64,000 bases of DNA from Candidatus Thorarchaeota archaeon. Its GTDB lineage: Archaea > Asgardarchaeota > Thorarchaeia > Thorarchaeales > Thorarchaeaceae. Of this stretch, positions 3,379-41,360 are shown piece by piece (positions within the stretch are counted from its first letter, which is position 1; the number at the start of each line of letters is the position of its first letter). Below the pieces are notes generated by a model. That model saw only the letters and a list, made by a program, of their open reading frames with translations. It did no database searches and had not been told where the DNA came from. The translations under genes and the position numbers were made by a program. The DNA lies in NCBI GenBank assembly GCA_029855935.1, contig JAGSHN010000023.1, positions 12,157 through 76,156 on the forward strand, given 5' to 3'.

Positions 3379-3563
3379 TTTCCAGCACTCTTCCTAGGTG
3401 GTGAAAAACTAGGAACGTGAGTGGTTTCGGCATCTAATAAGAGTTAGTTGTAGCAGCACTGGGACCGTTTGCGCGGTGCACTGGTCAAAGACAATCATCG
3501 CAATGCGTAGACATCGGAGAACGACTTATTGCGAAGAGGGTCGATTGCCGGGCTAGGGGTCTG

Positions 3564-4448: not shown

Positions 4449-4466
4449 CCGACAGTGTGCGGGCAC

Positions 4467-15547: not shown

Positions 15548-15583
15548 ATACTGATGTCTTGACAGACAACACGGCCGCGAGAC

Positions 15584-17069: not shown

Positions 17070-18221
17070 TCACTCACTACGGTGTCGCAGCAGGGCGTTC
17101 ATCTGCTTCTGCGTCAGCTTCCCAAAGTATGTCAATCGGGTTCCTGTGAGGTGCCTGTACTCCTTCGGGGTGACAGGGTGCGAGAAGTGCCTCAGGTCCT
17201 CGATAAAGACTAGGGCCACCTCTACTGGTGTGCCCTCAGTAACCCGTTTCTTCCGACGGCCCTTCTTGCCCCCGAGCCCACGCACCCAGTCCGAAACAAG
17301 TTTGTACACCTCGTCCTGAGTCATCCCCTCAATCTGGAACAGAGTCTTTGCATGCTGCTTCCAGAGGCCCTCAAAGTCGCCGTTCTTGATACCGTCCACT
17401 TGGGCATAGGCAGCCACTCCCTCTCGGTGAGTCCAGAAGAACATGTGCCAGTCAGCGTAGGACGACGGAGTTTCGATAGGGCCCGGTGCAAACACTCCCT
17501 TGAGTCCTTGTTCATGGTATTCCAGTTGCCTGTTCGATACTTGGAGCACCAGTGCCCGGATCGTCTTCTGCAGCCTCTTATAGCGCTCCTCAAATAGACG
17601 CCCCATTCGGTCACGAATTCTTCCGTCCGGGCGTTGGTTCTGACATTCAGCTAGCACGTCTCTAACGAAGGGCACCAAGGCCCCCGCGGCGTGCATTTCT
17701 CTGACCTTTTGCTCCGTGATGGGGTCAACGTTCTCTTCCTCTGCGGCCATGTCAGCCTCTTCCATAGCAGACTCTTCGACCTCCCATACTACTTCTGCTA
17801 TGGCGACGGTGTCGATGGCCTGTTTCAATTGACGGGGCAGGTATAGCCGAAAGGGCTCTGTCCTTGCCACTGTAACACGTTTCGTCACCGACACGAGCGT
17901 GTCATGGCCGACGTCTCTGTTTCTGACCTCATCCTCGCTGACATAGTGTATCAGGCGCTTCGTGGAGTGCATTGGCCTCCCATCGCCTATCTTCGCACGA
18001 ACCGTGGGGGTATCGTCGAGGACATCAGGGTCGAAGACCTCTTCCAATTGGTGCCCAATACCCTCTATCAATGGATCCCAAGTTTCTCTTGCGAACCTAC
18101 GCATCCTCCACCGATGAACCGGATAGGATAAGACACGATGAGCATCGAACTCGAAACATCCCGCAACTATCGTGAGAATGACCAATACCGCTGCTATGAG
18201 AAGTCCTATCTCTCCCCCCAT
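17070..18221 (-). CDS. N-terminally membrane-anchored hypothetical protein.
   Basis: 383 aa. The N-terminus IGLLIAAVLVILTIVAGCF is one TM helix. The remainder is soluble with no recognised motif. Confidence 0.55.
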   Translation of the reverse strand: MGGEIGLLIAAVLVILTIVAGCFEFDAHRVLSYPVHRWRMRRFARETWDPLIEGIGHQLEEVFDPDVLDDTPTVRAKIGDGRPMHSTKRLIHYVSEDEVRNRDVGHDTLVSVTKRVTVARTEPFRLYLPRQLKQAIDTVAIAEVVWEVEESAMEEADMAAEEENVDPITEQKVREMHAAGALVPFVRDVLAECQNQRPDGRIRDRMGRLFEERYKRLQKTIRALVLQVSNRQLEYHEQGLKGVFAPGPIETPSSYADWHMFFWTHREGVAAYAQVDGIKNGDFEGLWKQHAKTLFQIEGMTQDEVYKLVSDWVRGLGGKKGRRKKRVTEGTPVEVALVFIEDLRHFSHPVTPKEYRHLTGTRLTYFGKLTQKQMNALLRHRSE

Positions 18222-24854: not shown

Positions 24855-25661
24855 TAGGAACTACTCCTCTGTCTTTTACTACTATCCTCATAATGGCTGA
24901 ACTATATATACCCCGTCAGGAGCAGAGCAGAAGATCTATGCTCATTCATCTGGGGCCTCGGGGGGAGATTGCTACTGTATTTGGCTGTTCATCTCTTCAT
25001 ATCACGCTCGGGGCAATGACTTGATTTGTGCGCGTATTCATTATCGGCTCTGGCAATTGAGAGTTCGTACTGTCTGCGCATACGCCTCTGCAATGCCCTA
25101 CGATGAGAACATAGCGACAATTTTCATCTCAAGTCGACGGATGAATCTCTTATAGAAAGGAGGCTAATTCCCCCAGATTGGGGCAACTCGAGCCTTGACT
25201 CCTTGATAGCTAGCTACTAGATAGCCCAACAAGAGTCCGGAGGCGTGGGACTATATCCCTCATCCTATGTTCATCTCCGCTGACCGAATGTATGACACCG
25301 TGGACCTCAAATCGCCATCCGCGCTCGCCCAGCGGGATGGCCCAGCACAGCTCTTCAGAATATGAGATCGACAAGCCAGAGACGAATGACTATCTCAAGT
25401 TGAGCCTCCAAGGGCTATGCTCTTCTGATGCTGACCGAACAGAATCGTGACCATATCCACAAGAGGACAAGAGCTAATGAGCCTTGCAGTCCAATCTCTC
25501 AGCCTTGATAGTCACAATGGTAGTAGTGGCTCTTGAAGGCGCGTGAATGTTACCAGTTCGTCGAGAGGAGTAGGCCAAATATCTTGTTCGGACGTGTCTT
25601 CGAACGAGTACCCGTGAGGAAAGAAGAGAGAATACGCAAAGAGGAACAATCCATTGCGGCC

Positions 25662-26258
25662 CTAGGAGTTGCGGGAAGATCTCAACAGACTCACTGACTC
25701 AAGCACCTTTCTAATCCATTGCTTCGAGTACTTTTGTTTGAGTGCTGCTACTATGTCAACAATCGTGTCAAAGTCGCGTTCGTTGAACACTCTCTTCACA
25801 AACAGCGCTGTGGCAATCACTGACAGCTGTGTTGCGGTATATGATCCAAACTCCTCGACTAGCGTATCAATCACCTTCATTTCATTTTCGGCTAGGAAAC
25901 TAGCGAGCTCGGCTTCTCTCTTAGGAGAAATGAAATACCCCTTGTCAGAGTCCCACAAGATCCTAAGCCATCCCATTGCCTGAGCCAAGTTGGTAAAACT
26001 TGTCACCTTCGGAGAGTATGGTCCGTAGTGATACAGCGAATACCCAAGGTCCGTGCCGCCCTTCGCATCAAACAAGTACATTAGTTTCTGGATTTTTGTT
26101 CTCCCTATTTGCTTGTCAGGATGTCTTGCATATAATTTCCTTACGAGATAGTAGACCAGAGCAGGACCCTTTAGCAGACTCTTCATCTCTTCACAGACCT
26201 CCAGTATCCCTTGCTCGTTCCAGATCAGACGCATTGACATAGATTCTCGTCTTTGCAT
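25662..26258 (-). CDS. Panacea-domain (DUF4065/SocA-like) protein.
   Basis: TKIQKLMYLFDAKGGTDLGYSLYHYGPYSPKV matches the Panacea core (KLQKLLY...GPYSP). The start is uncertain (M at 26258 or 26240). It overlaps the 3' end of the upstream HD gene by 50-68 nt. Confidence 0.65.
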   Translation of the reverse strand: MQRRESMSMRLIWNEQGILEVCEEMKSLLKGPALVYYLVRKLYARHPDKQIGRTKIQKLMYLFDAKGGTDLGYSLYHYGPYSPKVTSFTNLAQAMGWLRILWDSDKGYFISPKREAELASFLAENEMKVIDTLVEEFGSYTATQLSVIATALFVKRVFNERDFDTIVDIVAALKQKYSKQWIRKVLESVSLLRSSRNS

Positions 26259-27447
26259 ATTTGCCTTGTAGTGCTTCCACTATGGGGGAATACGTTGAGA
26301 GAGGATAAATACGCCCCTCTTCTTTCTGAATGACCTGAATCTCTTCATTCTCAAGCCCATACCAAGTATTCATCTCTCTAAGACTATCCTCCCAGTACCA
26401 TATTCCGTTTGCGGAGAGCTTTGACTTCAGCCTGCTCAGCCTATCCTGTTCTTCTGATTGTATGCAAAGACCCCTTGTTTCATATAGAACTCGGGGGTGG
26501 TCTCTATTAATGATTCTTGTTAGTTCATCTTGCGCCTCTTGTCTCATGAGCTCCCACGCTGAGTAGTCATCAATCATCAGGAAGTCTTGGATGTCCTTTG
26601 GCGATGGAAGTTGGACTATTGCTTGTTTCAGTGCCTGTTGAAGAAGGTAGTCATATGCTCGTCGAGTTTTGTGACAATACACTTGGGTGAACATATGGTA
26701 CCTAGAAATAAGCAATGACTCCGCAATGTGCCATCCACCCTTCCTTACGCCAAGAACAACATCGCCGGTCTCAGGATCGACACCAAGTCCAAGAGTAACA
26801 ACTAGTCGCTCCAAGTCATAGATGCCATACTTGACTCCTGCGTGCAGAGAGTCTCTCAGGAGGTAGTCACATCGGTCGGCATCAAGCTGACTTGATATCA
26901 GAACCTTCCAAAATAGTCTTCCCTTGAGCCTCTTGGGGTTCCCGATTATCAAGTCTGCTATTTCTTCAGATTGGATTCCGTAGTTCTGGTTCAAGGGATG
27001 GTCTTCGATGACTTGCTTCAGTGGTCCATTGATGATTGAGACAGTATAGTCTTCGTGCTTATACTGCCTTCCAGTGGTCGGATTCGTTTGCATCAGTTCC
27101 TCGGACGCGTGAGAGAATGGCGGATGCCCCAGATCGTGAAGAAGCCCAGCAAGACGAACAATCTGGCGGTCCCTCTTGAAGCCAGCCTCCTCGTAGTCTA
27201 GATTGTCCCGAAGTATTCTCCTATTTTCTTCGTTTCCTATAATCGAGTCATACATTCGCGTTATCAGACGCATGACCCCGAGTGAATGTTCAAACCTAGT
27301 ATGAGTTGCACCAGGATACACCATGTCCGTCAGACCAAGCTGGCGTATTCTCCTAAGTCGCTGAATAGATGGGTGTGCTATGATCTCCTTTTCCCACTCA
27401 TTGAACTTCACGAAGCCGTATACTGGGTCTCGAACCTCGAACTTCAT
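26191..27447 (-). CDS. HD-domain phosphohydrolase, dGTPase/SAMHD1-like dNTP triphosphohydrolase family (COG1078).
   Basis: HTRFEHSLGV...LLHDLGHPPFSH...DADRCDYLLRDS are the canonical HD motifs of this family. The ORF is open to 27507, but the family consensus begins at MKFEVRDPVYGFV (27447). Confidence 0.85.
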   Translation of the reverse strand: MKFEVRDPVYGFVKFNEWEKEIIAHPSIQRLRRIRQLGLTDMVYPGATHTRFEHSLGVMRLITRMYDSIIGNEENRRILRDNLDYEEAGFKRDRQIVRLAGLLHDLGHPPFSHASEELMQTNPTTGRQYKHEDYTVSIINGPLKQVIEDHPLNQNYGIQSEEIADLIIGNPKRLKGRLFWKVLISSQLDADRCDYLLRDSLHAGVKYGIYDLERLVVTLGLGVDPETGDVVLGVRKGGWHIAESLLISRYHMFTQVYCHKTRRAYDYLLQQALKQAIVQLPSPKDIQDFLMIDDYSAWELMRQEAQDELTRIINRDHPRVLYETRGLCIQSEEQDRLSRLKSKLSANGIWYWEDSLREMNTWYGLENEEIQVIQKEEGRIYPLSTYSPIVEALQGKYAKTRIYVNASDLERARDTGGL

Positions 27448-28669
27448 CACGATATCCACACCCCAGCGCCACACTTCTTCACGTTGCGATATGTGCCCCG
27501 ATTGCAATACGGAATAAATGAGGATGAAATTCCAGACAAACAGAGAACAAGATCAGAATCACTTCTTGAGCCCTGACGTTCGCAAGATGGTCGTATTCCA
27601 ATCCAATTCCAAAACGTGAAACTCACAGGTGATGTATGGCCCTCTCTTTTGGCAGCCCGTTCGGCTACGCCAGTTCGTACGAGCACCGTATTCTTCGTGA
27701 TTGACGTCATGGTCACTGTTCGCATACTCCCCAAGATTCGTTGTCAGCCCACTTTCCCGCTCGAATGAGCAGAATACAGGGTACGAACACCATATGAATA
27801 CTTGTGCGATCCTGGCAGCCAGTTGAGGGAATCCGCAACTCTTCTATTTCAATCCACTGTCAAGAAAACGGCTGGGGCTACAATGACACGGTCCCGACCA
27901 CGAACCGCAGTCAAGCCCTCCATTGCCTGAGGGCCTAATAGTGACTCCGAAATTGATGCTGCGCACAACAAGATGACTGACCAAACAATCTCCCAGAGGG
28001 GGTATCGTTGCCTGTGGTCCGAGGAGCAAAGTTGCTATCACAACGAAAGCTCAGTGTGGCTGTAGCTGAGCTACTCAACCCGATCTACCTTACGAATCGT
28101 ATGCACACGGGCATTGCCATATCCTTCCTAGACCGAGCGTTCCGCCTAGCAGATTTCGGTAGCGGGTCGAAGTACCTCTCGGCTACTCCAAGCGTATCGG
28201 GGAGCAAACGTGCATAACCACCGGACTTCGTTCATTCCTGTTCAAGCGCAGCAATGGTGTCATCGTCAAACTCTTTGACATCATCGGAGAACCCAAGAAG
28301 GCTGCAAGCCTAGCGCTCCCAGCTTCCACAACGTGTTTCTTCCTGCTTGAGCCAACCGTTCACGTAGGCAGTTCAATTATTGACGAGAGTAAGCAACAGC
28401 ACCGCCTGCCCACAGGTCAACAGAGTTGAAAAGTAGCTGGATAGCAAAGACATCCGAGCGCTTTGATAGGCTCAGCCCACATAGGGGCTTGAGAAGAATG
28501 CCCGTATTGCCAGAAATCACCAAGCCCCTGGGAATTGGATAGACACAGACGCTCGACTGCTAGCCAAGTCACATCAACTGCAAGACAGCCAAGGAATGGG
28601 TGAAGGCGCAGGTAGAACTATGGGAGTTTTGTCACCATAGGCGAGACATCAGAAACAAACGTTGATTGT

Positions 28670-29149
28670 CTAGCCAATCAACGTGAATCCGTCAAAGATA
28701 CTGCAGCCGCAAGGTACTATCCGCAAAGGGAAACTAGGCGTTCCCAGAATCCTCTTTACCAGAGACAAGTTATTCGCAACAAAATCGCATATGTTCTGTG
28801 GGAGAACCAATATGTGACGGTAGTTGGGATTTCTCACGCCCATGCAGTCCAGCAACCCACCAAGAAATCCTTCAGTTTCCTTGAACTTGCTATCAAGACT
28901 GCGGATGGCTTCAGAAAAGGTTGATTCCTCAGCAATGTTCTTGAGTTCCACCAGGAATGCGGTGCATTTGTCATCCTCGAACATAACGTAGACTACATCG
29001 CAATGGGCCAAGTGCATTCTCCCAAGTTCCGCGTACTTCTCGAAGTTGAGAACCAGAAAGGGCAGACCGCCCTTGAGGATGATTTTGCAGTCATTCTCTT
29101 CATACTCGGCTTCCATTCTCGGCCCATTCGTCGTCCCCGGCACGTTCAT
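28670..29149 (-). CDS. Small protein with a PD-(D/E)xK-like nuclease motif, the putative partner of the upstream ATPase.
   Basis: HCDVVYVMFEDDKCTAFLVELKN contains D-hydrophobic-strand ... E-L-K. It is 159 aa, and its start overlaps the stop of the 29100-30833 ATPase. Confidence 0.4.
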   Translation of the reverse strand: MNVPGTTNGPRMEAEYEENDCKIILKGGLPFLVLNFEKYAELGRMHLAHCDVVYVMFEDDKCTAFLVELKNIAEESTFSEAIRSLDSKFKETEGFLGGLLDCMGVRNPNYRHILVLPQNICDFVANNLSLVKRILGTPSFPLRIVPCGCSIFDGFTLIG

Positions 29150-30833
29150 CGTCTCCTAAGCCTAGCGCCCACTCCAGCAGAATATCTATGACATCCGTCA
29201 GACTGGGAATGTGCTTTGTTAGCTCATCTGCGGGAACTTCTGATACTTCAACTCCTTCCTTCTCAGGCTTGTAGTAGTAGAACCGGATGTCAAGATCCCC
29301 TGCTCGCGCAGCGTATTCTGACAGAAGCTCAAGAGGACCGCCCTCAACAGGCACCCTCTGCATCTCCAGGAGCCTCTCTATCAGCTCACGGATCTTCTCG
29401 CTGCTGGGTCGGTGTATCTTTATGTATGCTAGGATAAGAACGATGAGGTCACTGTGGGTACTGAAAACCACTTGGTGCTCGTACTTGCTTGCAAGCGCCG
29501 CCAGAGTCAACCCCATCAGCAATTGAGCGGCATAGTGTAGTTGAGCCTCGGGCTCCTCTATGATGATCCTTGATCTTGGACGCGTCGAGAGAACTGGCAA
29601 CAGAATTCCCGCAACTTCTCCGGCCAGGGCCGAGGCCGAGTTCATTGGCACGGCGCACGCACCCGTGGAATAGAATAGACCCTTCGCCCTTTCGTAGGTA
29701 AGTCTGCCTTGAAGAACCGGAAGAAATAGCTCAATTGCTTCCTTGTCGTAGGAACCGTCGGCAATCTTGGATCTGCCCAGGCTCAGCCACGATATGTAGG
29801 AATGCAGAACGACATCTGACTCATACAGTGTGCTGTAGCCACGTCTGTCTCTTCGAATCGGTTCTTGCGAGAGGAGTTCTAGCTGGTTGATGACGAGGCT
29901 TCGTCCGAATGGAATGAAACGTACTTCCTCTAGACCGTATGACTCAGCATACGCAGCCCTGAGCGGTTGACATATTGACTCGTCTACGAATTCCAGAAGC
30001 ACGTCATCCAGCCACAATTGGATACGGTGGGGAAGGAAGGAACCTAGGACATAGCCAGGCCTGCTGGCCCTCTGGAGAATCTGACTGACTGTGGCCTCCG
30101 GACTCTTTGCCGACGAAGCAATCTTCTTCAGTTCGTCCAGCACGTTCTTCGAGAAGACCCTCTCAACCGCCCTACTGCTGGCCCTCATCGAGAATCTGAG
30201 CTCCAAAGCAATTGCAACTACTCCTTCGGGTTTCAGGTCAAATGAAACGTTCGCTTGACAGATCGTATTCCTCCTCAGGTCACCAAATTTCTCAGCATAA
30301 CTACGTGGCTCCGTAGAACTCTCAGCAATCAAGTCAAGGAACTCCGGCATTGATACCGAACTATCCAGTTTCGAGTCATCTCTCACCAAGACGATATCCC
30401 GATAGAAGTCTAGATTGGGCCGCAGCAAACTATCGACAGGAATGACGCCAGAGGCCTCTATGGTAAAGTTGAGAGTGCCATCTTCGGAGCGCCAGCGAAC
30501 GTTTTCCGCACCAGTCTGTTCTCTGAAAACCTCAGCGAGATTCGGTACTTGACTCTCTAAGCCTTCAAGGCCCAACGCGTACAACGCTACCAGCGCGTAC
30601 AAAGCCCTCAGCGAGTTTCGCAGATTCAGAGGCGGATAGTCCACATCATACGTACTTAGTAGGTTACGGAACTCAAACTCGCGTGCGTGCTCATCGAGCA
30701 TTAGAGTCGAAGCATACAAGGCTCTGAGGGTATACGACTTCCCCGTATTAGGCGGCCCGAACACGACAGTTATGTCGCCAATCTCTATATCCGCCGATCG
30801 TATCGGGCCCAAGTTCTCTATGTGGAATCCCAC
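29100..30833 (-). CDS. AAA_21/ABC-type (OLD/RecF-like) ATPase.
   Basis: Walker A is VFGPPNTGKSY. The C-terminal RIIIEEPEAQLHYAAQ...VVFSTHS carries the Walker B/D-loop and H-loop typical of AAA_21 ATPases of defence systems. Confidence 0.8.
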   Translation of the reverse strand: MGFHIENLGPIRSADIEIGDITVVFGPPNTGKSYTLRALYASTLMLDEHAREFEFRNLLSTYDVDYPPLNLRNSLRALYALVALYALGLEGLESQVPNLAEVFREQTGAENVRWRSEDGTLNFTIEASGVIPVDSLLRPNLDFYRDIVLVRDDSKLDSSVSMPEFLDLIAESSTEPRSYAEKFGDLRRNTICQANVSFDLKPEGVVAIALELRFSMRASSRAVERVFSKNVLDELKKIASSAKSPEATVSQILQRASRPGYVLGSFLPHRIQLWLDDVLLEFVDESICQPLRAAYAESYGLEEVRFIPFGRSLVINQLELLSQEPIRRDRRGYSTLYESDVVLHSYISWLSLGRSKIADGSYDKEAIELFLPVLQGRLTYERAKGLFYSTGACAVPMNSASALAGEVAGILLPVLSTRPRSRIIIEEPEAQLHYAAQLLMGLTLAALASKYEHQVVFSTHSDLIVLILAYIKIHRPSSEKIRELIERLLEMQRVPVEGGPLELLSEYAARAGDLDIRFYYYKPEKEGVEVSEVPADELTKHIPSLTDVIDILLEWALGLGDDERAGDDEWAENGSRV

Positions 30834-31646
30834 GGGGAGCTCCCTCGGTGGGGACGTGCTCGTTCTCCGAACAATAAGGCTTTCGATAGAGGGCTGCAGG
30901 AGACTATGTCACGAGCGGACTGGGCGGCACGTAAGAAACCGGTTTTCTCATTAGAACGGCATTCCCGAAGACCAAGGCATCGCACGCCCCTGAGCCGCCC
31001 CTTTGCTTAGCTACATTGTCACGAAAATGCAAACTCTGTGCACAGATGTGCAACGAGAGAGCAAGCGTCGACACATCAGGTACAGCAGTATGAGGGCCAG
31101 ACAGTTGACCAACGCCAGTGCGGGCCACGTCCTCAAGAGAAAAGATACTCAAACTCATTGAACGGACACACTTGACGGTCTACATCTAGAACGTGAAAGT
31201 GCCCGCGGCTGCCACCGGGTACACGCGGTAGAAGTGGAAGAGTAGTCAAACTCCGGGACCAATTCCAAATGTGACAGTTCAACAGCAAGCGCGCCTGCAA
31301 ACACAAGGTGAAAGACATAGTCATCGCTCGGAGAAGATCTCTCCCCGTACGATGTGCAGCTCCAGAATCTGCCCTATTCTACGACTCTTCAGGCATTCGT
31401 TCCGTCTTCTCGTGGCGGGGATAGACGCAGGACCTGATTGTACCAACAAGCACGGGCGGAGACCCCGACTCGACCCGGTCACGAGTACAGCGTTAGAAAC
31501 AGCCTTGGTCGAAGAATCGACTATGGCATTGGAACTCCATCATCAAATCAGCCCGCTAAATTCAGGTTTCCGCTGTCCCTGGAGTGCTCTTCTCCAAAGA
31601 AACGACTCGCTGTTGGCCAGCCATCGGGTTTCGCAGACGCCTGTCA

Positions 31647-32312
31647 CTAACCCAGAGATCTCCGAAGAAGGACCCTATTCAGACCTCTTTTTCCTCTCTT
31701 TTTCCTGATTGAGGAGCGCTTGACTACCTTCCACTTGCCTAGGTCGAAAAACAACACGTCTATCCGGTGTCCATCCTTTTGTCGGTCGTCTAGTTGTTGC
31801 ACGTCATCTATCGCTTTCTCCAAGGGATTCTGATCTCGTCCCCCTCTAGAAGTTGGGACCAAAAGAATGACCTCTATCAGGTGACGGTAGCTCAACTTGT
31901 TCTTGAATTCCACCAGCTTCTCAAAGTCCTCTCCATAGCCTCTCGGGTTTGTTGTTAACTTGAACTCCACCACTGCAAGATTCAGTTGATCTTTTCCCTT
32001 GACGTGGATGATGAAGTCCGGTATTCGTCCAGTATCGAAAATGTGTTGGTAACCTTTGTTCACTTCTCCCTGCACAATAGCACCGCCAAAATCCACAACT
32101 CGCTGTTCAATCAGACACCGGAGCTGATGGTAGAACTCGTATGCGATAGGGCGTTCAAGGAATTTCAACTCTGCAGCACTATTCTGCCCTTTAGTAGACG
32201 ATATCTGCTGATAGTCATAGTGAGATAGTTGACAATACTCTTGGTCCATTCTTTCAAGCGCACAGCAAACAGCATCAAGAACACCCGAACACTTGGCTTC
32301 AACTTTGTCCAT
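31647..32312 (-). CDS. Standalone PD-(D/E)xK-family nuclease-like protein.
   Basis: RIPDFIIHVKGKDQLNLAVVEFKL contains (P)D-hydrophobic strand ... E-x-K. The tail RKKRGKRGLNRVLLRR is basic. 221 aa. Confidence 0.5.
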   Translation of the reverse strand: MDKVEAKCSGVLDAVCCALERMDQEYCQLSHYDYQQISSTKGQNSAAELKFLERPIAYEFYHQLRCLIEQRVVDFGGAIVQGEVNKGYQHIFDTGRIPDFIIHVKGKDQLNLAVVEFKLTTNPRGYGEDFEKLVEFKNKLSYRHLIEVILLVPTSRGGRDQNPLEKAIDDVQQLDDRQKDGHRIDVLFFDLGKWKVVKRSSIRKKRGKRGLNRVLLRRSLG

Positions 32313-32858: not shown

Positions 32859-34778
32859 GTGAAACTCAAATCAGTCCACGTGAAGCACTTTCGATGCATC
32901 CGGGACCAGACCCTGAATTGCGAGGACCTCACAATACTCGTTGGTCCGAACGGCTCTGGAAAGTCTTCCTTTCTCAGGGCCCTCGACCTGTTCTATTCCA
33001 CTTCGCCAAGTTATGCACAGGATGACTTCTACGGCCGAGACACGGACACACCCATAACGATCACGGTCACATTCTCGGAGCTGGACGATGACGAGCTAGA
33101 GCTATACAAGAGATACGTGCACAACAACGAGCTATCCATAACTCGAAAACTGGAATGGCCTCCCAGGAGAGGCTCGGCGAAATACCACGGGCTTCACAAA
33201 TGCAATCCCGACTTTGATGGATTTCGTAGGGCAAGTGGGTCGGATCTGCGCCGCGAGTACAATGCGCTACGTCAGGGCAAATATAGAGAACTCCCTCCGT
33301 ACTCCAACAAGGATGCTGCTGAAGGAGCGCTCAAGGATTGGGAGGATAGGAATCCGGACAGATGTGAGATTAGGGAGGACGATGGCCAGTTCTTCGGATA
33401 TACCGCAGTAGGCAAGTGGGTCCTGGAGAAAGGAACACGATTCTTTCTTGTGCCGGCCGTGAGGGACGCAGCCCTTGACGCTAGAGAAGGCAAAGGAAGT
33501 CCGTTCTCGGAGATAATGGACATAGTCGTGAGAAGTACTCTGAAAGATGCCCCCAGCTGGCAAGATCTTCAGAATCTCGTAAGAGAAGAGTATCGCAAGG
33601 TAATTGGTCCCATCCGGGAGGAGAAGCTGGAACAGATAAAATCCGAACTGATGGAGATTCTGCAGACATACGTGCCAAGCGGGAGCGTAGAGATAGACTG
33701 GGACGTTGAAACAGATCCGGAGATTCCAGCACCAAGAGCTACCGTAAGGCTTGCAGAAGACGAGTTCTATTCTCCTGCGGAGCTTTGCGGTCACGGCCTA
33801 CAGAGGGCACTGACCCTGGCGATGCTCCAGCTCCTTGCCAGAATTCGTACTCGGCTCGGATCAGACGAAACGCCGAACGAACCAACCTTCATCATCGCAA
33901 TTGAAGAGCCTGAGGCATATCAGCATCCCAACAGGCAGCGCCATCTGGCAAGAGTCCTCGTCGATCTTGCAGAAAATGGGCTTCCTGGTGCTGCTGAGAG
34001 AATCCAGATTATCTGTACAACACACTCGCCTCTATTCGTAGATATGGCAAACTGCCACAGAGTTCGCAAGCTGAGAAAGATCAAGACACAGACCAACGCA
34101 CCTCCCGAAACAGTGGTTGTTTCGACCAATCTTGACACTCTGGCCCGTGAGTTAGAGCAGATTGACGGCAAGGCTCAGGGAACGTATAGTGAGAAATCAG
34201 TATTGTCGCGGCTGAGAGCAGTGATGACCCCTCAATTGAACGAGGGATTCTTTGCTGATGTAGTGGTCCTCGTGGAGGGAGAAACTGATCGGGCGGCTAT
34301 CCTTGCAGTGGCAAGGATGCTGGGTCACGATCTTGAGGCATTGGGCATATCTGTGCTCCCGTGCTCAGGGAAAGGGAGCCTAGTCGGTCCTGCCGTTGTC
34401 TTCAGGAGTCTCGACATACCAATATACCTTGTCTGGGATGCCGACACGCAGTCCGGGGGCTCCGGACAGGACGATCCTCACAACAGAAAGCTCTTCCGCC
34501 TGATGACTGGCACAGCCAATGGCTCCCCGGGCACAATTGCTTCGACGTATGCCTGTCTGCAAACCAACCTTGAGGAAACCATTAGGACGGAGATTGGTGG
34601 TGACGTATTCGATCCCATAGTGGAGCGGTGGCGCAAGGAGCACGGAATGAAGAGAAACGCCGCAGTCAAGCGAGCTGCTGCAATTGAGGAGATTCTCAAT
34701 CAGGCCGCACAACAGGGAAGAAGATGCCAGACAATCGAGGAGATTGTCACACAGATAGTCAAGCTTGTTGAACAATAG
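32859..34778 (+). CDS. OLD-family ATP-dependent endonuclease (AAA_21 ATPase + Toprim).
   Basis: GTG start. Walker A is VGPNGSGKSSFLRALD. IIAIEEPEAYQHP is the Walker B/D-loop, followed by TTHSP. The C-terminal Toprim is DVVVLVEGETDRAAILAVAR ... YLVWDADTQSGG (E + DxD). Confidence 0.85.
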   Translation: MKLKSVHVKHFRCIRDQTLNCEDLTILVGPNGSGKSSFLRALDLFYSTSPSYAQDDFYGRDTDTPITITVTFSELDDDELELYKRYVHNNELSITRKLEWPPRRGSAKYHGLHKCNPDFDGFRRASGSDLRREYNALRQGKYRELPPYSNKDAAEGALKDWEDRNPDRCEIREDDGQFFGYTAVGKWVLEKGTRFFLVPAVRDAALDAREGKGSPFSEIMDIVVRSTLKDAPSWQDLQNLVREEYRKVIGPIREEKLEQIKSELMEILQTYVPSGSVEIDWDVETDPEIPAPRATVRLAEDEFYSPAELCGHGLQRALTLAMLQLLARIRTRLGSDETPNEPTFIIAIEEPEAYQHPNRQRHLARVLVDLAENGLPGAAERIQIICTTHSPLFVDMANCHRVRKLRKIKTQTNAPPETVVVSTNLDTLARELEQIDGKAQGTYSEKSVLSRLRAVMTPQLNEGFFADVVVLVEGETDRAAILAVARMLGHDLEALGISVLPCSGKGSLVGPAVVFRSLDIPIYLVWDADTQSGGSGQDDPHNRKLFRLMTGTANGSPGTIASTYACLQTNLEETIRTEIGGDVFDPIVERWRKEHGMKRNAAVKRAAAIEEILNQAAQQGRRCQTIEEIVTQIVKLVEQ

Positions 34779-34976
34779 GTTCGTCTAGTCACGCCAAGAT
34801 GCGAAGTCCTTTCGACTACGACTCTCAGAAACCTCAGAGTATGTCCGGATAGACAGTACCTCTCTCGTATGCCGAGAGGTTCCCAGCGGTGACAATCCGC
34901 CGACGATGGACGCGACACGGGCAATAGCCCCGAGATTCCCATAGACGTAGGACAGGCTATGTGCCAAAACCTCTAA

Positions 34977-36065
34977 ATGCCCCTTGGGCACACAATCGTT
35001 GAGGGGTCATCTCTGAGGGTACTCCACACGTCGGATCTCCATCTCAGTGCGGGCAACCCGCGCACACTCGAAGCCCTCGAACACATTCTAGATGTGGCAA
35101 GGCAAGAGAACGCAGATATCGTCACCATTGCTGGTGATATGTTTGACTCTGCCAGAGATGCAAACGAACTGCGGCCACAGCTAAGAGATCTGCTATCCGA
35201 AAACGGCTTTGAGATCCTTGTCCTCCCCGGGAACCACGACGCCACGGCCTTTACCCAGAATACATTCTACGGCAATGATGTGTTCCCGCTGATCGATAAG
35301 CCTGTTACTGTCAGAGAATATGAAGACCTCCTCATCGCGGGCGTGCCATTCCGCGAGAGGCTGGACGATGATGTAGCACTCCGAATTCGAGAAGTTTCGG
35401 ACTTCACAGGCACGAAGATCCTCTTGCTGCACTGCACCCTCGATATCGGCCTCGGGAGCGGTGGCTTCGGCGAAGAAGAGGCGATTCGCTACATGCCTGT
35501 GTCTTCAGCCAAGCTGGCCGGGCTCGGTTTCGACTACATCCTGGCTGGCCATTTTCACTCTTCGCTGCACGAACAGAAGCTTGCAAGCGGAGGACTGTTC
35601 GTCTACCCGGGGTCACCAGTCTCTCTGACAAGGAAGGAGCGAGGGCGGCGATCCGCCTATCTCATTGACACTGAGAGCAAGAAGACGCAGGCCATAGAGC
35701 TCTCTACGTTCTACTGTGATGAGCTCGAGGTCACAATCTCGCCGGGTACAGAGAAGGCGTGGGTCGAACAAATCGAACAATGGGCCAAGCATCACAAAGG
35801 AAAGAACTGTGACGTCAGGGTCATCGCGAAGGGGTTCACCGAGATGCCAGAGGCTGAGCTGAAACAACAGATTGAGGCTGCAGCCGGGGGAATTCACGTT
35901 GACTTTCGCGTCCGTGGCATTGAGAACATCCTCCGATACCCCATATATCAGAGATTCAAGCAGCGACTTCTTAATGATGATGGGATCGACGACAAGGAGA
36001 GGGTAGATATGATGATGCTCACGGTCGTGTCTCGACTGGCGGAAGAGGGGGAGCTTGACCTATGA
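34977..36065 (+). CDS. Calcineurin-like metallophosphoesterase, SbcD/Mre11-like nuclease.
   Basis: The phosphoesterase motifs are present in order: LHTSDLHL, AGDMFD, GNHD, LLLHCTL, GHFH. 362 aa. Confidence 0.85.
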   Translation: MPLGHTIVEGSSLRVLHTSDLHLSAGNPRTLEALEHILDVARQENADIVTIAGDMFDSARDANELRPQLRDLLSENGFEILVLPGNHDATAFTQNTFYGNDVFPLIDKPVTVREYEDLLIAGVPFRERLDDDVALRIREVSDFTGTKILLLHCTLDIGLGSGGFGEEEAIRYMPVSSAKLAGLGFDYILAGHFHSSLHEQKLASGGLFVYPGSPVSLTRKERGRRSAYLIDTESKKTQAIELSTFYCDELEVTISPGTEKAWVEQIEQWAKHHKGKNCDVRVIAKGFTEMPEAELKQQIEAAAGGIHVDFRVRGIENILRYPIYQRFKQRLLNDDGIDDKERVDMMMLTVVSRLAEEGELDL

Positions 36066-38065
36066 GGTTGAAAGAGCTCAACATCATCCGATATGGACCC
36101 GTGAGGGACCGCAGGCTCACGTTTGAGGAGAGCGTCAATCTCATCTACGGCCCGAACGAGTCCGGCAAGACACTCTCAATAGATGCCCTGATCAAGCTCC
36201 TCCTTGGACGGGAGAGAATCCAGAGATGGGACATCGACCGTGTCGAGTCAAAGCCCAACGGGTACGCAATCATAGAGATTGGGGGCGAAGAAATAGAGCT
36301 CACCGGCTCCAAGTCATTGATTGACGTAATCGAGATGGATGACACCGAACTTGCAGTAGACGACCTGAGAAACGTGTTCATCATTCGAGACTCGGACCTT
36401 CGAACTCACGATTCCCCCAGGTATTTCGAAACGCTTGTGGATCGGGTATCGGGAGCACGACTTGCGGAGATCGAGAAGATAATAGAAGAACTCGAGAGAG
36501 AGGGACGCATAACACCGAAAGGTCAACTCACGGATCGTCAAGACACGGGAAAGCTCGCAACTCGTGTCCGAGATGCCCGCAAACTGTTGAACGCGATTGA
36601 GGAGTTTTTCCAAAGACCGGAAACGCATGAATATGAGGAATTGGAATGGGAGTTTGTCAGGAAAAAGACCCGACTAGAAATCTTGAAACAACACTGGGAG
36701 CGACTTGAGCAAGCCAAAGAGCTGTACGAAGCTGTTGAGATTCGAAACAGTATCAGTGTCATTGAGGGACTCTTGAAGGAACGACAGCGATACGACAGGA
36801 GCCAAATCAGCAATCTAAGGACAAAGGCAGAACAGGCTAGGGCTGAGTGTGAGTTCATTGAGGCGAGCAAAGAAAAGATTGAATTCTTGTCCAGAACGGT
36901 ACTCGTCTTTGCATTTCTGTCGATGATTGCCCTGGTTCTGGCAGTGCTTGTGAATCCGTTGGCTCTAGCAGGTCTAGTTGTGTTCGCAGTCCTGACAACG
37001 CTTCACGTGGGAAGAATTCTGTCAATCAAGGACGACGAAGCCAAGTTTAGGTCCAAGGCTCACACTCTTCTGATGGAGGCTAGGGCTGTTGGTATCAAAT
37101 GCGATGACGTGGATGCACTATGCGAGAAACTCCGAAGCGTCTTGGACCGCGCGGACGAGGTCCATAACAAACTGATAGGACATTGGTCGGTCTTGGCAGA
37201 CAAGTTCAACTTGCCAATGGATGCAAACCCCGAGGACCATCTCCCTTCGATAAGAAACGATATCGAAATGAGACTCATGGCACACAAAGGTATTGATGCT
37301 GACAACTTCGATTCAGAAGAGTACGAGAGAGTTAGGCAAGAAATGCGCGAACTCGGCGAAGAGATTGAGGGATATGAGAAGAAACTTGAGTACTACCGGG
37401 ATAAGCTTCAGGAATTTGAGCGCACAACGAACCATGTACTAAGAGCTGATTTTTCCGGCAGTGATGGGGGCTTGGAAATAGGCTCTCTTGAAGCACTGAG
37501 GGCAGCTCGGTCGAAACTAGAAGAGTTCATAGATCGGGTCGAGACCCGTGCCGATACCGCTAGAGAGGCAATCAAGATACTCAAGGAGGTGCGCAATGAA
37601 GAGAGAAGCTCAATAGGCAATCTCTTCAAACCCGATGGACCTGCAACCCGCACCTTCGCAAGAATCACGAAGGGGGCGTATTCGGAGGTGCTGGTGAACA
37701 GGGACGGGTCAGCAATCCACGTCCGTCGGGCCGGAGGAGAGCTCATTCCCCTTGAGAAGCTGAGCAGGGGAGCAACCGACCAGCTCTATCTGTCAGTACG
37801 GATTACGCTTGCGAAAGAGATTCTGGGAGAAGAGCCGGGGTTCTTCGTCATGGATGATCCCTTCTTGGCCTCAGATATGGGTAGGCTACGTGAGCAGGTA
37901 AGCATATTGAAGGAGCTGGCCCAAGAGGGATGGCAGATCATCTACTTCACCTCCAAGGAGGAAGTGGTGACCGCGTTCAGGGAGATGGTGGGCGTTAAAG
38001 CGAAGTCATTGAATACGCTTCAGGGCCTGATACCGCCAGAGGAAGTTTCCCAAGCGGAGCCGTGA
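36062..38065 (+). CDS. SbcC/Rad50/SMC-like ATPase with a central hydrophobic hairpin.
   Basis: The start overlaps the upstream stop by 4 nt (ATGA). Walker A is YGPNESGKT. A long charged coiled-coil follows. The C-terminal LSRGATDQLYLSVRITLA is signature-motif-like, and FFVMDDPF is Walker B. Residues around 275-320 (LVFAFLSMIALVLAVLVNPLALAGLVVFAVLTTLHV) form two predicted TM helices where a Rad50 zinc hook would normally sit. Confidence 0.8.
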   Translation: MRLKELNIIRYGPVRDRRLTFEESVNLIYGPNESGKTLSIDALIKLLLGRERIQRWDIDRVESKPNGYAIIEIGGEEIELTGSKSLIDVIEMDDTELAVDDLRNVFIIRDSDLRTHDSPRYFETLVDRVSGARLAEIEKIIEELEREGRITPKGQLTDRQDTGKLATRVRDARKLLNAIEEFFQRPETHEYEELEWEFVRKKTRLEILKQHWERLEQAKELYEAVEIRNSISVIEGLLKERQRYDRSQISNLRTKAEQARAECEFIEASKEKIEFLSRTVLVFAFLSMIALVLAVLVNPLALAGLVVFAVLTTLHVGRILSIKDDEAKFRSKAHTLLMEARAVGIKCDDVDALCEKLRSVLDRADEVHNKLIGHWSVLADKFNLPMDANPEDHLPSIRNDIEMRLMAHKGIDADNFDSEEYERVRQEMRELGEEIEGYEKKLEYYRDKLQEFERTTNHVLRADFSGSDGGLEIGSLEALRAARSKLEEFIDRVETRADTAREAIKILKEVRNEERSSIGNLFKPDGPATRTFARITKGAYSEVLVNRDGSAIHVRRAGGELIPLEKLSRGATDQLYLSVRITLAKEILGEEPGFFVMDDPFLASDMGRLREQVSILKELAQEGWQIIYFTSKEEVVTAFREMVGVKAKSLNTLQGLIPPEEVSQAEP

Positions 38066-38249: not shown

Positions 38250-39008
38250 CTACTCGTATATCTCCGAGATACTCGCAATCTCTCTCATCAGAAGCGTGAT
38301 CTCGTCTAATAGCTCTTCACCCTCGTCGGGGTCCTGGGTCCGTATGAGCTTGTCCTCATACATCCGGATAAGTCGCACCAGCTTCCTGTATCGCGGTAGA
38401 GGGAACTGTTCGGGGATCTCACCGAAGATGTAGCCCCGTTGTGGGGACAGATGTTCCTCGGCCGCTATATTTGCAATTTGAGTGATGGGAACCCAGATCT
38501 CCGCCAGAGTCCCGTCGTCATCTTCACTCGCCTTAAAGTAGGCCCCAATCTCGACGTCGTACTCGCCAAGGGTGCCTCGCAGTATGCTATCTGCGCGGAC
38601 GTATCTCCATCCTCTTGCCCGTTTCTTCTTTCGGAGGGCAACAACTATCTCAACCTCACCGTCCTCACGGTTTTCGCGAATGTACTCGCGGTCATCCTCA
38701 CTGAGGCGGCAGGTCGGCGGTATTCCCCCAAAGTCGGTGTGAGAATGAAACTCGCCGACTATGAAGTCCCAAGACAGAAACGCCAAGACCTCCTCAATAC
38801 GGGCATATCTGCGGAAATTCGGCTCCACTGATGTGTATCGTCGCTCGGAGGACTGGAGAGCCACAACTGAGTTGACCACAACTTTGCCCGCCGAACCGAA
38901 GATGTCGCCCATCAATACACCTGTACATTCGCGCTTGTAGACCTCAATCGCATACCCGAGCATCTGTGCAAAGGCAGGTGCCCGGACGAAGACTGTTTCA
39001 ATCTCCAA
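38250..39008 (-). CDS. JAB/MPN (JAMM) domain metalloprotease-like protein with a C-terminal extension.
   Basis: EVYKRECTGVLMG followed by GEFHSHTDFGGIPPTCRLSEDD matches the E...HxH...S..D JAMM pattern with slightly longer spacing. 252 aa. Confidence 0.55.
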   Translation of the reverse strand: MEIETVFVRAPAFAQMLGYAIEVYKRECTGVLMGDIFGSAGKVVVNSVVALQSSERRYTSVEPNFRRYARIEEVLAFLSWDFIVGEFHSHTDFGGIPPTCRLSEDDREYIRENREDGEVEIVVALRKKKRARGWRYVRADSILRGTLGEYDVEIGAYFKASEDDDGTLAEIWVPITQIANIAAEEHLSPQRGYIFGEIPEQFPLPRYRKLVRLIRMYEDKLIRTQDPDEGEELLDEITLLMREIASISEIYE

Positions 39009-39531: not shown

Positions 39532-40059
39532 TCACAAGAATTTTCTCACGAAGTACCTGAAAGATTCACTTCTACGTTGTGCAAGCGAGGGGTCGAATCT
39601 CTCGATGATTCTATTCATAAATACCGAACGCGGTATCGACTGCGGTATTATGATATTGAACCACTGTTTTGTGACACGTGGCGGAATCGCGAGCCTCCTG
39701 ACACCAGCAATCTGCCGAAGAATTTCTCTCTCAATTCCCGCGACATACCACGCCTCTATCTCGGGTATGACAACTACTATGCGCTGCTCGTCCCCAATCC
39801 CATATCGTCCGGCTATTTGGTTTCTCAGTGCCGTCACACAGGGATAGCGATCCAGATCCCGAACAAGGACATACTCAGTACTCTTCCGTTCCAAGGTATG
39901 AATGAATTTCCGAATTTTCCTTTTCTCCATCTGAGCGTACTTGACGATTTGAACACGATCATAGTGTTTCTCAAGACGTGAACAAAGGATTCTCCTGAAG
40001 AAGCGTTCGTCGTCATCCCCTTCGACGAAGACATAGAAAGACGACATTTCTTTCGACAC
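39532..40059 (-). CDS. Small Toprim-like (DUF4276/RloB-like) protein, partner of the upstream AAA_21 ATPase.
   Basis: The N-terminus FYVFVEGDDDERFFRRIL resembles the hhhVEGxTE start of DUF4276/RloB-type Toprim proteins. Its start is 2 nt after the ATPase stop. 175 aa. Confidence 0.5.
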   Translation of the reverse strand: MSKEMSSFYVFVEGDDDERFFRRILCSRLEKHYDRVQIVKYAQMEKRKIRKFIHTLERKSTEYVLVRDLDRYPCVTALRNQIAGRYGIGDEQRIVVVIPEIEAWYVAGIEREILRQIAGVRRLAIPPRVTKQWFNIIIPQSIPRSVFMNRIIERFDPSLAQRRSESFRYFVRKFL

Positions 40060-40061
40060 CG

Positions 40062-41360
40062 CTACTGCAGAATGCCCTGCACGAATAGGTCATCCACACC
40101 GAGATCGTTCTCCAGAAACGCCATTACCTCCTCGTCATTTCTTGGACGCGTGACCTGCGAATATCCATCCTCGTCCCGCGTAACAAGGAGAAGGTTATCA
40201 ATACCAGCGTGCTTGACCACTTCGGGGTTGTGCGTTGTAATTATCACCTGTTTGTTCATTCGGCTCGAGACCTCTTTCATCATATTCACAATCTTCGAGA
40301 TGAGTAGAGGGTGAATGTTTCGCTCGGGCTCCTCTATGATAACGAGAGGGTTCTTTTCGAAATACAATGCGATTACCAACGTTGTGACATTCACCGTACC
40401 ATCTGAGATCAGAAAGGCTGGCAGGAACCGTTTCTGTGAATAGATCTCTCTGATGCTGGCGAGAAGCGATTTGTCCGGAAGTCTCTCTACCGTGAAGTCC
40501 TCTACGAGTGGCAGGACATCCTTCACTAATGACGAGATCAGGTCCCGGTCTCGCTTATTATCCAAGATGCGCTTCAGAATCAGGGGCAGATTGCTACCGT
40601 CTGGCTCAAGCTCGGTCTTGCCAGTGACGGGAGTTGCACGTTTCATAAGTCGCGGATCAAAATCGTAGATAGAGATGTTACGCAGATAGTGTGCCAAGCT
40701 CGAATAGAACGGTGAAAGAAGGACTGGATCTTCAATGGAGAGTCTTCGTGGGCGCGGACGGGCAGCATATCTCATATCTCGCGCTAGAGACAGGTAGAAG
40801 AAGCGTTCTATGCGTGTGTCCGAGAGGGAATCAGACATTTCCATCGTCACTCTGCGACCATCATTGATAGTAGTGATAGTGCCTTTGCGAACTTCTCCAC
40901 GGAGCGCATCACCACCGTTCGGCCGGCGAGTCCCGTATTCACACACTGCCGTGAGTTTGTCCGACACTCCCGAGTAGTCCAGTTTGCGTTTGTAGAACCT
41001 GATTGAGAGTTCGTAATCGTACCGACTGACGGAGAGATAGGCATCTCGAGATATCCGCAAGATGTCTCTTGCTTCGAGTGAGAGTTGGATGGACAGGTCA
41101 CGCAAAGAACCTATGGCAAGATTGCGTAAGTAGGCCACTCCACCTTGCATCGAAATAGCGTTCTCCAACCCCATCGTGGTGATATCCTTGAGGAACCGGA
41201 ACAGGGCGATAAGATTGGATTTTCCTGAGGCGTTCGGTCCGACTATCACGTTGAAGTCGCCCAACTCAATCTCCGTTTCATTGAAGGTCCTGAAATTGCT
41301 CACCCTTATTCTTCGGATCCTCGTTGTGTCCTTCGGTCGCATAGGTTGGGAACCTCCCAA
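40062..41360 (-). CDS. AAA_21/ABC-type ATPase.
   Basis: Walker A is VGPNASGKSNLIALF. The C-terminus LVIIEEPERNIHPLLISKIV...VIITTHNPEVV carries Walker B, Q/H-loop features. Confidence 0.8.
   Translation of the reverse strand: MGGSQPMRPKDTTRIRRIRVSNFRTFNETEIELGDFNVIVGPNASGKSNLIALFRFLKDITTMGLENAISMQGGVAYLRNLAIGSLRDLSIQLSLEARDILRISRDAYLSVSRYDYELSIRFYKRKLDYSGVSDKLTAVCEYGTRRPNGGDALRGEVRKGTITTINDGRRVTMEMSDSLSDTRIERFFYLSLARDMRYAARPRPRRLSIEDPVLLSPFYSSLAHYLRNISIYDFDPRLMKRATPVTGKTELEPDGSNLPLILKRILDNKRDRDLISSLVKDVLPLVEDFTVERLPDKSLLASIREIYSQKRFLPAFLISDGTVNVTTLVIALYFEKNPLVIIEEPERNIHPLLISKIVNMMKEVSSRMNKQVIITTHNPEVVKHAGIDNLLLVTRDEDGYSQVTRPRNDEEVMAFLENDLGVDDLFVQGILQ

Follow-up and report, generated by a model that had tools for sequence, protein, structure and literature searches.

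Genes A and B, which overlap on the minus strand of an Asgard archaeal contig, probably constitute a self-contained two-gene antiviral cassette of the class that combines an ABC-ATPase sensor with a nuclease effector. Gene A (29100..30833, minus strand, GTG start) encodes a 577-aa OLD/Septu-type ABC ATPase (AAA_15/AAA_21), and gene B (28670..29116, minus strand) encodes a 148-aa partner that is modelled with high confidence as having the PD-(D/E)xK, that is, restriction-endonuclease, fold. (Coordinates are those of the window, the entire stretch of 64,000 nucleotides that was analysed.) The pairing of an ABC ATPase with a PD-(D/E)xK nuclease is not a new architecture, because HEC-02, PD-T4-4, WonAB and 'OLD-ABC ATPase + novel REase' have already been described and in part validated; what is new is the archaeal family alone. 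An earlier note on this DNA, which named HNH, Toprim/DUF4435 and RloB proteins as the known partners of such ATPases and suggested that a PD-(D/E)xK partner might be a different variant, was right in so far as the archaeal family is new and incomplete in that it omitted the PD-(D/E)xK pairs already described.

The extent of the overlap between the two genes, to which the earlier note had also drawn attention, depends on the start that is chosen for gene B. Read from its first ATG (28670-29149), gene B would specify 159 residues, the length proposed originally, and would overlap gene A, whose stop codon is at 29100-29102, by 50 nt. Gene calls for the related loci L001, L002, L003 and L004 have a 17-nt overlap, and because this is the arrangement in the closest homologues (L001 and L004), gene B probably starts at ATG 29116 instead of 29149; the overlap then occupies 29100..29116 on the minus strand, and the longer protein is 11 residues in excess. 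(Numbering below refers to the 148-aa protein; in the 159-aa numbering, D40 is D51 and E57-L-K59 is E68-L-K70.) That gene B overlaps gene A suggests translational coupling. A Shine-Dalgarno-like GAGGGAG precedes the GTG start of gene A, and the ~87 nt ahead of that gene (30834..30920, minus strand), which a related cassette has in common, are probably the promoter and 5' leader. By blastn, 79% similarity to L001 is confined to 28786-30920 and ends at both edges of the cassette, which is inherited as a unit to this extent. A search among the neighbours of the family loci for a third conserved gene yielded none, the flanks varying from locus to locus, and an Rfam search near the pair returned only a sub-threshold RT-19 match (25311-25410, E 0.055, 27 bits for a gathering threshold of 78) that is treated as chance.

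The product of gene A is an OLD-type ABC ATPase. Its Pfam scores of 50.9 bits for AAA_15 and 29.9 bits for AAA_21 exceed the respective gathering cut-offs of 32.1 and 27, so that the profile search recommended in the earlier note upholds the assignment made there on the basis of the GPPNTGKSY and IIIEEPEAQLH motifs, both of which are intact. The Walker A/P-loop GPPNTGKSY (30732..30758, minus strand; residues 26-34) has G26, N29, G31 and K32 invariant among 36 ATPase homologues. The same holds for E427, P428, E429 and Q431 of the Walker B/D-loop segment RIIIEEPEAQLH (29535..29570, minus strand; residues 422-433, with IIIEEPEAQLH at 423-433), and for S458, T459 and S461 of the H-loop STHSD (29448..29462, minus strand; residues 458-462), in which H460 and D462 are kept in at least 90% of the 36. 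The protein has an ABC-type head fold with N-terminal beta-hairpin strands that is nearest to PtuA/retron ATPases, to the heads of SMC/Rad50 and to AriA; its C-terminal region, in the AF2 model, is made up of helices and a beta-hairpin.

The head is interrupted by an insert (29934..30692, minus strand; residues ~48-300) composed of helices and a beta-rich domain, for which the AF2 model places strands at 111-132, 155-158 and 177-217 with helices on either side. No Pfam or PADLOC model covers the insert. No other part of the ATPase varies as much (mean pairwise identity of 13-18% vs 59-61% in the head), most of the insert is absent in part of the family (L033-L041; L050), and this variable segment of ~250 aa is a candidate sensor region.

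Gene B is assigned to the restriction-endonuclease fold on the strength of a structure predicted from an alignment (A4) assembled from database proteins. The predicted active site, as judged from conservation, would comprise E26, D40, E57-x-K59 and K77. D40 (codon 28997..28999, minus strand; in H38-C39-D40, just ahead of a beta strand) is invariant in 59/59 members and sits at the start of strand 41-47 of the predicted structure; E57-L58-K59, the (D/E)xK motif (28940..28948, minus strand), lies at the end of strand 50-58, with E57 in all 59 members and K59 in 57 of them; E26, at the start of helix 25-31, is found in 53/59. The 'D...ELK' motif that had been picked out in the small protein as nuclease-like is not due to chance, since every member has D40 and E57 and nearly every one K59, and the proposal of a PD-(D/E)xK partner gains from the modelled fold and the conserved catalytic motif alike. 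Three cysteines (C10, C39 and C136) are conserved in the partner family, C39 adjoining the catalytic Asp40, and position 138, which would supply a fourth, is variable. A Cas4/AddB-type Fe-S nuclease needs four cysteines (one N-terminal, and a C-terminal CX2CX5C), compared with three at other spacing in this protein, which also has no match to Cas4 or PDDEXK_1 in Pfam and PADLOC, and gene B is not placed in that group. Pfam, PADLOC, NCBIfam and PHROGs provide no family assignment for the small ORF, whose sole PHROGs match (E 0.029) is to a PHROG without known function. Sequence matches of the partner profile in the PDB, to protein A (E 0.12) and an ice-binding protein, are spurious and of low complexity.

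The best fold matches of the gene B model are restriction and nicking endonucleases and the nuclease domains of the Upx and Hna defence proteins. This, together with the finding that no methyltransferase is conserved beside the pair, speaks for an NTP-dependent restriction enzyme lacking a cognate methylase (McrBC-/type IV-like), in which the complex would cut modified or foreign DNA directly and without abortive infection. Such an enzyme is nevertheless very unlikely, in that no DNA-recognition domain is identified in either protein (Pfam, ATPase model) and those relatives for which there are data arrest growth or inhibit translation (WonAB, PMC12137116). Direct restriction is in any event a sub-mechanism of the antiviral cassette and not a true alternative to it.

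The two genes are conserved as a pair. The earlier note had proposed looking for their co-occurrence in other genomes: a homologous small ORF lies directly 3' of the ATPase gene, on the same strand, in 31/31 family loci that have enough downstream sequence to judge. These loci span Asgard, Bathyarchaeia, Archaeoglobi, Thermococci, Thermoprotei and Thermoplasmata (and three loci absent from HMM training are detected all the same). The identity matrices of A and B are correlated (r = 0.93), a value that 0/5000 permutations reach, and dN/dS of 0.23 (gene A) and 0.21 (gene B) relative to a 75%/60%-identical relative implies purifying selection on both genes. A word-indexed homologue search retrieved only three, and then five, relatives of the partner; the partner family was recovered by way of the genomic neighbours of ATPase homologues and by exhaustive HMM search, and amounts to 62 cluster representatives among 1.84 billion proteins. 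The ATPase has 56 homologues among 5.8 billion clusters, and a scan of viral contigs with the ATPase alignment brought up no relatives. By these sequence searches the family is restricted to archaea, rare and uncatalogued.

The rarity and patchiness of the family count against another reading of the pair, in which an SMC/Rad50/RecF-like ATPase and an Hjc/NucS-like structure-specific endonuclease would act on host DNA in repair or recombination. The ATPase model shows no sign of a coiled-coil insertion like that of SMC/Rad50, the nearest sequence relatives of the ATPase are defence ATPases, and the variable flanks of the pair hold no conserved repair genes. An SbcCD-like block lies nearby, at a position relative to the pair that shifts between the two genomes compared. 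A role in repair is accordingly judged highly improbable.

The 64-kb window, densely packed with defence genes, is a defence island, in which the neighbours of the pair include an OLD nuclease, a HEC-01 pair, GmrSD and a Cas4-like nuclease, as well as an HD-domain protein beside a SocA_Panacea-domain ORF; at a related locus, type III CRISPR and pAgo lie near the pair. Several well-known systems built on related ATPases can be set against genes A and B. In PARIS (AriA + AriB) and OLD/Gabija, the role of effector falls to a Toprim/DUF4435 domain that is separate in some cases and fused in others. The gene B protein matches neither Toprim nor DUF4435 and is modelled as a restriction-endonuclease fold, which sets the pair apart from PARIS, AbiL and HEC-01; the 577-aa ATPase has no OLD-like_TOPRIM match, whereas the neighbouring 639-aa OLD protein has one, and this separates it from OLD and GajA of Gabija. 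The absence of Toprim from the pair is trustworthy, because the OLD-Toprim protein and the HEC-01 ATPase + Toprim pair of the same window are recognised full-length (the HEC-01 pair at 4e-50). Septu differs in that its partner, PtuB, is an HNH nuclease, and PtuA of Septu or of retron-associated PtuAB aligns with only ~240-268 of the 577 ATPase residues.

Profile links that are weak but concordant between A and B point to the pair being an archaeal relative of the bacterial HEC-02 and PD-T4-4 systems, and perhaps of WonAB. All 36 ATPases match PD-T4-4_A, PDC-M47A and PDC-M56A, and 35 of the 36 match HEC-02A; members of the partner family have weak matches to HEC-02B, PD-T4-4_B, PDC-M47B, NERD, PDDEXK_9 and DUF2726. 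HEC-02 consists of an ABC ATPase (HEC-02A) and a NERD-like protein (HEC-02B), and phage defence by HEC-02 depends on the catalytic residues as well as on both genes (Payne et al., bioRxiv 10.1101/2024.01.29.577857). As in the archaeal pair, the ATPase gene comes first and the small nuclease gene second, with the start of the latter overlapping the stop of the former. HEC-02B (169 aa) and the 148-aa partner have a common signature, D...hhE-h-K...K-x-x-x-T, and hhalign of the partner profile A4 with three HEC-02B sequences brings D/ExK/K into register (E57-L-K59 with IEVK of HEC-02B), albeit at a probability of only 49.5% (E 1.7e-4). Scanning of 59 partner relatives gave 12 weak matches of members to models, distributed over six HEC-02B models (best 1.5e-4), and NERD is matched by 3/27 partner-family members (best 9.5e-4); the partner protein of the window itself has no HEC-02B or NERD match at E <= 1. 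HEC-02A, at 342 aa, is much shorter than the 577-aa ATPase, which carries the ~250-aa insert and extends further at its C-terminus, and the likeness between them is confined to head motifs: the best E among the 35 matching ATPases is 4e-14, and the match of the window ATPase (2e-9) relates residues 3-56 to positions 5-59 of a 338-position profile, which is not full-length membership. The examples of HEC-02 that were compared are bacterial (Dickeya, Pseudanabaena, Paracoccus), in contrast to the archaeal family described here, and the C10/C39/C136 triad is not conserved in HEC-02B.

PD-T4-4 is described as a PD-(D/E)xK nuclease together with a P-loop/ABC NTPase accessory protein that forms higher-order complexes (Vassallo et al. 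2022). Of the PADLOC families, PD-T4-4_A attains the lowest E-value with the 36 ATPases (6.7e-23). Its matches extend over no more than the initial ~47 residues or the Walker B stretch; the window ATPase is matched at 7.5e-16 over residues 1-47 only. Five partner-family members match PD-T4-4_B weakly (best 1.3e-3), and the partner protein of the window gives no match to that model. PD-T4-4 is a bacterial system (E. coli), and the pair is archaeal. WonAB (AWB73975.1, AWB73976.1), which is likened to the pair by published description only, resembles it in gene order and nuclease class: the first gene specifies an OLD-type ABC ATPase and the second a small PD-(D/E)xK nuclease of variant type (Adams et al. 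2025, PMC12137116), and the catalytic lysine comes early in both nucleases (K71 of WonB, K59 here). Phage defence by WonAB requires both genes and the catalytic residues, and involves an ATPase-dependent nuclease activity that brings about abortive infection via translation arrest; most of the homologues reported for it come from Gram-negative bacteria, archaea being unmentioned (PMC12137116). An 'OLD-ABC ATPase + novel REase' operon is attributed there to Krishnan et al. 2020.

It is likely, by analogy with these systems, that the ATPase serves as a sensor controlling a nuclease effector that is directed against viruses. The conserved ATPase head would dimerise around ATP, and the fast-evolving insert of ~250 residues is likely to form the surface at which a cue of infection is detected. 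The nuclease would be held by the ATPase and depend on it, most likely through the C-terminal extension, as modelled for WonAB. Upon a trigger, the binding or hydrolysis of ATP would permit the nuclease to cleave a nucleic-acid substrate, which could be DNA of the virus or of the cell or, as has been proposed for WonAB, a tRNA or rRNA. Virus replication would be halted, possibly by way of growth arrest. A more particular proposal is that the pair represents an archaea-specific immunity lineage in which the insert is a new sensor of archaeal viruses and the cysteine triad a metal site or redox switch that gates the nuclease, both features being absent in bacterial counterparts. This is tentative and rather doubtful; if true, it would make the pair an uncharacterised innate-immunity module of Asgard archaea, with a regulatory principle undescribed for HEC-02, PD-T4-4 or WonAB.

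Catalogued defence systems are mostly bacterial, and archaeal immunity, that of Asgard above all, is poorly charted. The models of PADLOC v2, Pfam and NCBIfam miss the nuclease and recognise the ATPase only at generic motifs, making the pair invisible to them in a defence census. Genes A and B extend the ABC-ATPase + PD-(D/E)xK class to six archaeal lineages, a gain that is incremental because the architecture and likely logic were already known; the compact nuclease and the variable insert are usable for studying how such ATPases sense infection.

The tight, overlapping two-gene operon and its cassette-like inheritance are also compatible with a toxin-antitoxin (TA) or addiction module, in which the nuclease would be a toxin that the ATPase merely neutralises or sequesters, and the cassette would stabilise the genomic island without sensing virus. 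The Pfam text for AAA_21 ('putative AbiEii toxin, Type IV TA system') fits this interpretation, as do TA-like elements near the pair, such as the SocA_Panacea-domain ORF, and WonB on its own is toxic on overproduction (PMC12137116). On the other hand, the toxicity of WonAB needs an active WonA ATPase, simple sequestration having been ruled out by its authors (PMC12137116), and an antitoxin would not need to be a 577-aa ATPase whose catalytic motifs are invariant and whose insert evolves fast. An addiction module is thus considered unlikely. The difference between a TA module and abortive-infection defence is, it should be said, partly semantic.

Gene A (29100-30833, minus strand, GTG start) encodes a 577-aa ABC ATPase, and gene B, its small downstream partner, encodes 148 aa when read from the ATG at 29116 (28670-29116, minus strand), overlapping gene A by 17 nt. 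The earlier note, which located both ORFs correctly, gave the partner 159 aa. That is indeed its length from the first ATG (29149), which produces a 50-nt overlap with the gene A stop, but the gene calls of the closest relatives (L001-L004) give the 17-nt overlap, and start 29116 with its 148-aa numbering is therefore used here. Relative to the nearest relative (75% identity for the ATPase, 60% for the partner), dN/dS is 0.23 for gene A and 0.21 for gene B; both are thus real, constrained genes. The observation of an ATPase paired with a nuclease-like protein is confirmed and its interpretation supported. The architecture, ABC ATPase plus PD-(D/E)xK protein, is already known; what is new is the family, which is rare, confined to archaea, set apart by its insert and a cysteine triad, and missed by the models of PADLOC v2, Pfam and NCBIfam.

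Homologues of gene A number 56 among 5.8 billion clusters. A scan in which each species was represented by one genome turned up 41 loci, with all strong ATPase matches archaeal: Promethearchaeota (Asgard), Bathyarchaeota, Archaeoglobales, Thermococcus, Thermoprotei/Desulfurococcales and Thermoplasmata. The partner was sought at each locus as a same-strand ORF starting about -90 to +200 nt from the ATPase stop, and a candidate of 150-210 aa lies downstream in nearly all 41; phmmer with the window's gene B alone recognised 20 of these (E < 1e-3), and 29 were recognised after three HMM iterations, at convergence. In a six-frame HMM table the partner directly follows the ATPase in 31 of the 31 family loci with at least 500 nt of downstream sequence (three of them, L009, L018 and L029, lying outside the HMM training set), so that the co-occurrence on which the proposed two-gene module rests is borne out. 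Six of the remaining loci run out at a contig edge, and the partner is absent at four weak, motif-only ATPase matches, one of them bacterial. Pairwise identities among the ATPases track those among the partners (matrix correlation r = 0.93, a value reached in none of 5000 permutations). DNA similarity to the closest relative (L001, a Promethearchaeota MAG; 79%) starts 87 nt upstream of gene A and stops inside gene B, the flanks being unrelated. Flanks vary by locus generally, and comparison of neighbours across loci found no third gene recurring beside the pair.

When three divergent partner relatives were looked up, two were preceded by an AAA_15 ATPase. For the third, a partner-family homologue on a 1.9-kb JGI contig (P0101, E 3.3e-7; L048, 1186-1716), the preceding gene is not an ABC ATPase but a 170-aa ORF that matches Pfam NAD_synthase (PP-loop) and overlaps the homologue by 20 nt; no ATPase-family signal is found in the six frames of that contig, which could represent a different pairing or be fragmentary. 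At three Thermoplasmata-type loci (L019, 2293-2610; L025, 3072-3389; L027, 5669-5944) a conserved same-strand ORF of ~90-105 aa abuts the ATPase start; it may be a third component peculiar to that lineage, or else an N-terminal extension.

Gene B belongs to a genuine, though rare, family. Of 1.84 billion cluster representatives searched exhaustively with an HMM, 62 are relatives (E <= 1e-3); nearly all measure 104-206 aa, and a few are shorter fragments. Gene B itself matches no curated family in Pfam, PADLOC, NCBIfam or PHROG, and a search of PDB sequences with its profile returns only noise. An alignment of 59 members has D40 and E57 throughout, K59 and K77 each in 57 and E26 in 53; H38 (48/59), C39 (50/59) and C136 (52/59) are also conserved, as is C10 in every sequence covering that column. 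A confident AlphaFold2 model built on this alignment (pLDDT 94.4, pTM 0.89) has E26 opening a helix, D40 opening a strand and E57-x-K59 closing the strand that follows. This predicted layout is the classical PD-(D/E)xK one, in support of the nuclease fold that had been suspected from a short motif. Foldseek ranks the PD-(D/E)xK/restriction-endonuclease class first, with an E value of only 0.019, and the model is therefore taken to be a divergent version of that fold.

In gene A, the motifs GPPNTGKSY (residues 26-34), RIIIEEPEAQLH (422-433) and STHSD (458-462) are recognisable, and Pfam gathering scores are exceeded for AAA_15 (50.9 bits vs 32.1) and AAA_21 (29.9 vs 27). Models of Pfam, PADLOC, NCBIfam and PHROG cover only residues 1-56 and 407-468; the ~350 residues between match none of them. 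A 36-homologue profile finds a single match among PDB sequences, the OLD-family nuclease 6p74, over the Walker B to H-loop region. Only ~240-268 of the 577 residues align, the remainder being a C-terminal extension and, following the P-loop helix, an insert (residues ~48-300) of helices and a beta-rich domain; no relative of that domain was identified. Across the family, mean identity is 59-61% in the head and only 13-18% in the insert. Most of the ~250-aa insert is missing from short-form ATPases (~428-495 aa; L033-L041 and L050, mostly Thermoproteota/Desulfurococcales), which are still directly followed by a member of the partner family.

The partners that the earlier note listed for such ATPases (HNH, Toprim/DUF4435, RloB) are an incomplete set, since pairs with PD-(D/E)xK proteins have been described: HEC-02, an ABC ATPase with a NERD protein in which defence needs both genes (bioRxiv 10.1101/2024.01.29.577857); PD-T4-4, classed as a PD-(D/E)xK nuclease-NTPase system (bioRxiv 10.1101/2025.07.10.664194); and the bacterial WonAB, an ABC ATPase with a PD-(D/E)xK nuclease (PMC12137116). 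An 'OLD-ABC ATPase + novel REase' operon is of the same pairing class, as far as it is described by way of PMC12137116. Among 36 gene A family members, all match the PADLOC models PD-T4-4_A (best 6.7e-23), PDC-M47A and PDC-M56A, and 35 match HEC-02A. In the partner family, weak matches recur to six HEC-02B models (12 member-model matches, best 1.5e-4), PD-T4-4_B (5), PDC-M29B, PDC-M47B and Pfam NERD, PDDEXK_9 and DUF2726. The profile matches of both families point concordantly to the HEC-02/PD-T4-4/WonAB group. When a HEC-02B set (a 169-aa Dickeya sequence from the preprint's supplementary table and two plasmid homologues that each follow an ATPase) was compared with the partner profile, hhalign gave 49.5% probability (E 1.7e-4) and placed HCDvvYv/aMDvvYi, VELK/IEVK and KfxxT/KlrnT (partner/HEC-02B) in register. 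Gene B is thus probably a remote homologue of the NERD-like HEC-02B group, a relationship short of proven membership. The pair belongs to none of the Septu, PARIS and Gabija/OLD families, whose defining effector (HNH or Toprim) it lacks.

All three cysteines of the C10/C39/C136 triad are present in 44 of 59 gene B members, with C39 adjoining the predicted catalytic Asp40. The three HEC-02B sequences have no equivalent of the triad, which, with three cysteines, also departs from the four-cysteine pattern of Cas4. A structural zinc site, a disulfide and a redox/metal switch are possible roles.

WonAB requires its nuclease lysine and its ATPase motifs, and the nuclease is toxic only with an active ATPase; defence is a lysis-independent abortive infection through translation arrest, in which DNA stays intact (PMC12137116). 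A mechanism for the archaeal pair, modelled as a whole on WonAB, would have the gene B nuclease held by a gene A ATPase dimer whose variable insert senses an infection cue, with ATP-driven head engagement licensing cleavage; candidate substrates would be DNA, or tRNA/rRNA. Since the two reading frames overlap, their translation may be coupled and the stoichiometry of the products fixed.

The surroundings of the pair are a defence island. On one side, a 438-aa HD + HD_assoc_2 protein with weak dGTPase-like matches overlaps a 198-aa SocA_Panacea/DarG C-terminal-like ORF (25662-27507, minus strand), which may make another defence or toxin-antitoxin-type pair. On the other, a plus-strand block (32859-38065) starts with a full-length, 639-aa OLD-family nuclease (AAA_15 + OLD-like_TOPRIM; PADLOC Old 1.3e-54), followed by an SbcD/Mre11-like phosphoesterase (34977-36065) and, overlapping it by 4 nt, a 667-aa SMC/Rad50-like ATPase (36062-38065). 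The SbcCD-like block is, with a 70-nt match, the only other window-similar stretch on the L001 contig, where it lies on the opposite side of the pair, with 76% DNA identity and its ATPase gene called as two ORFs. Beyond lie a prokaryotic JAB protein (38250-39008, minus strand); a HEC-01 pair (39532-41360, minus strand), a candidate system of ABC ATPase + Toprim/DUF4276 type, made up of a 432-aa AAA_21/AAA_15 ATPase (40062-41360; HEC-01A 4e-50, full length) and a 175-aa ORF (39532-40059; HEC-01B 3e-8); a PDDEXK_1/Cas4-like nuclease (41812-42825, plus strand); and a GmrSD_N protein (45912-47690, plus strand) matching HEC-05/BrxU-like and PDC-M55C models.

The pair is immediately preceded on its own strand by a 221-aa ORF (31647-32312, minus strand), which has a weak PADLOC PD-Lambda-3_A match (1.3e-4) and no Pfam or NCBIfam match, and is not conserved beside the pair in other loci. 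The cassette flanks (27508-28669, 1.16 kb; 30834-31646, 0.8 kb) are unusually long and free of convincing ORFs; they match no Rfam family, and their conservation with L001 is confined to ~87 nt upstream of gene A (30834-30920). The L001 cassette is itself flanked by a type III CRISPR-like RAMP cluster (1-7495) that includes another AAA_15 ATPase and, on the other side, by a Piwi-domain (pAgo) gene (15294-17387).
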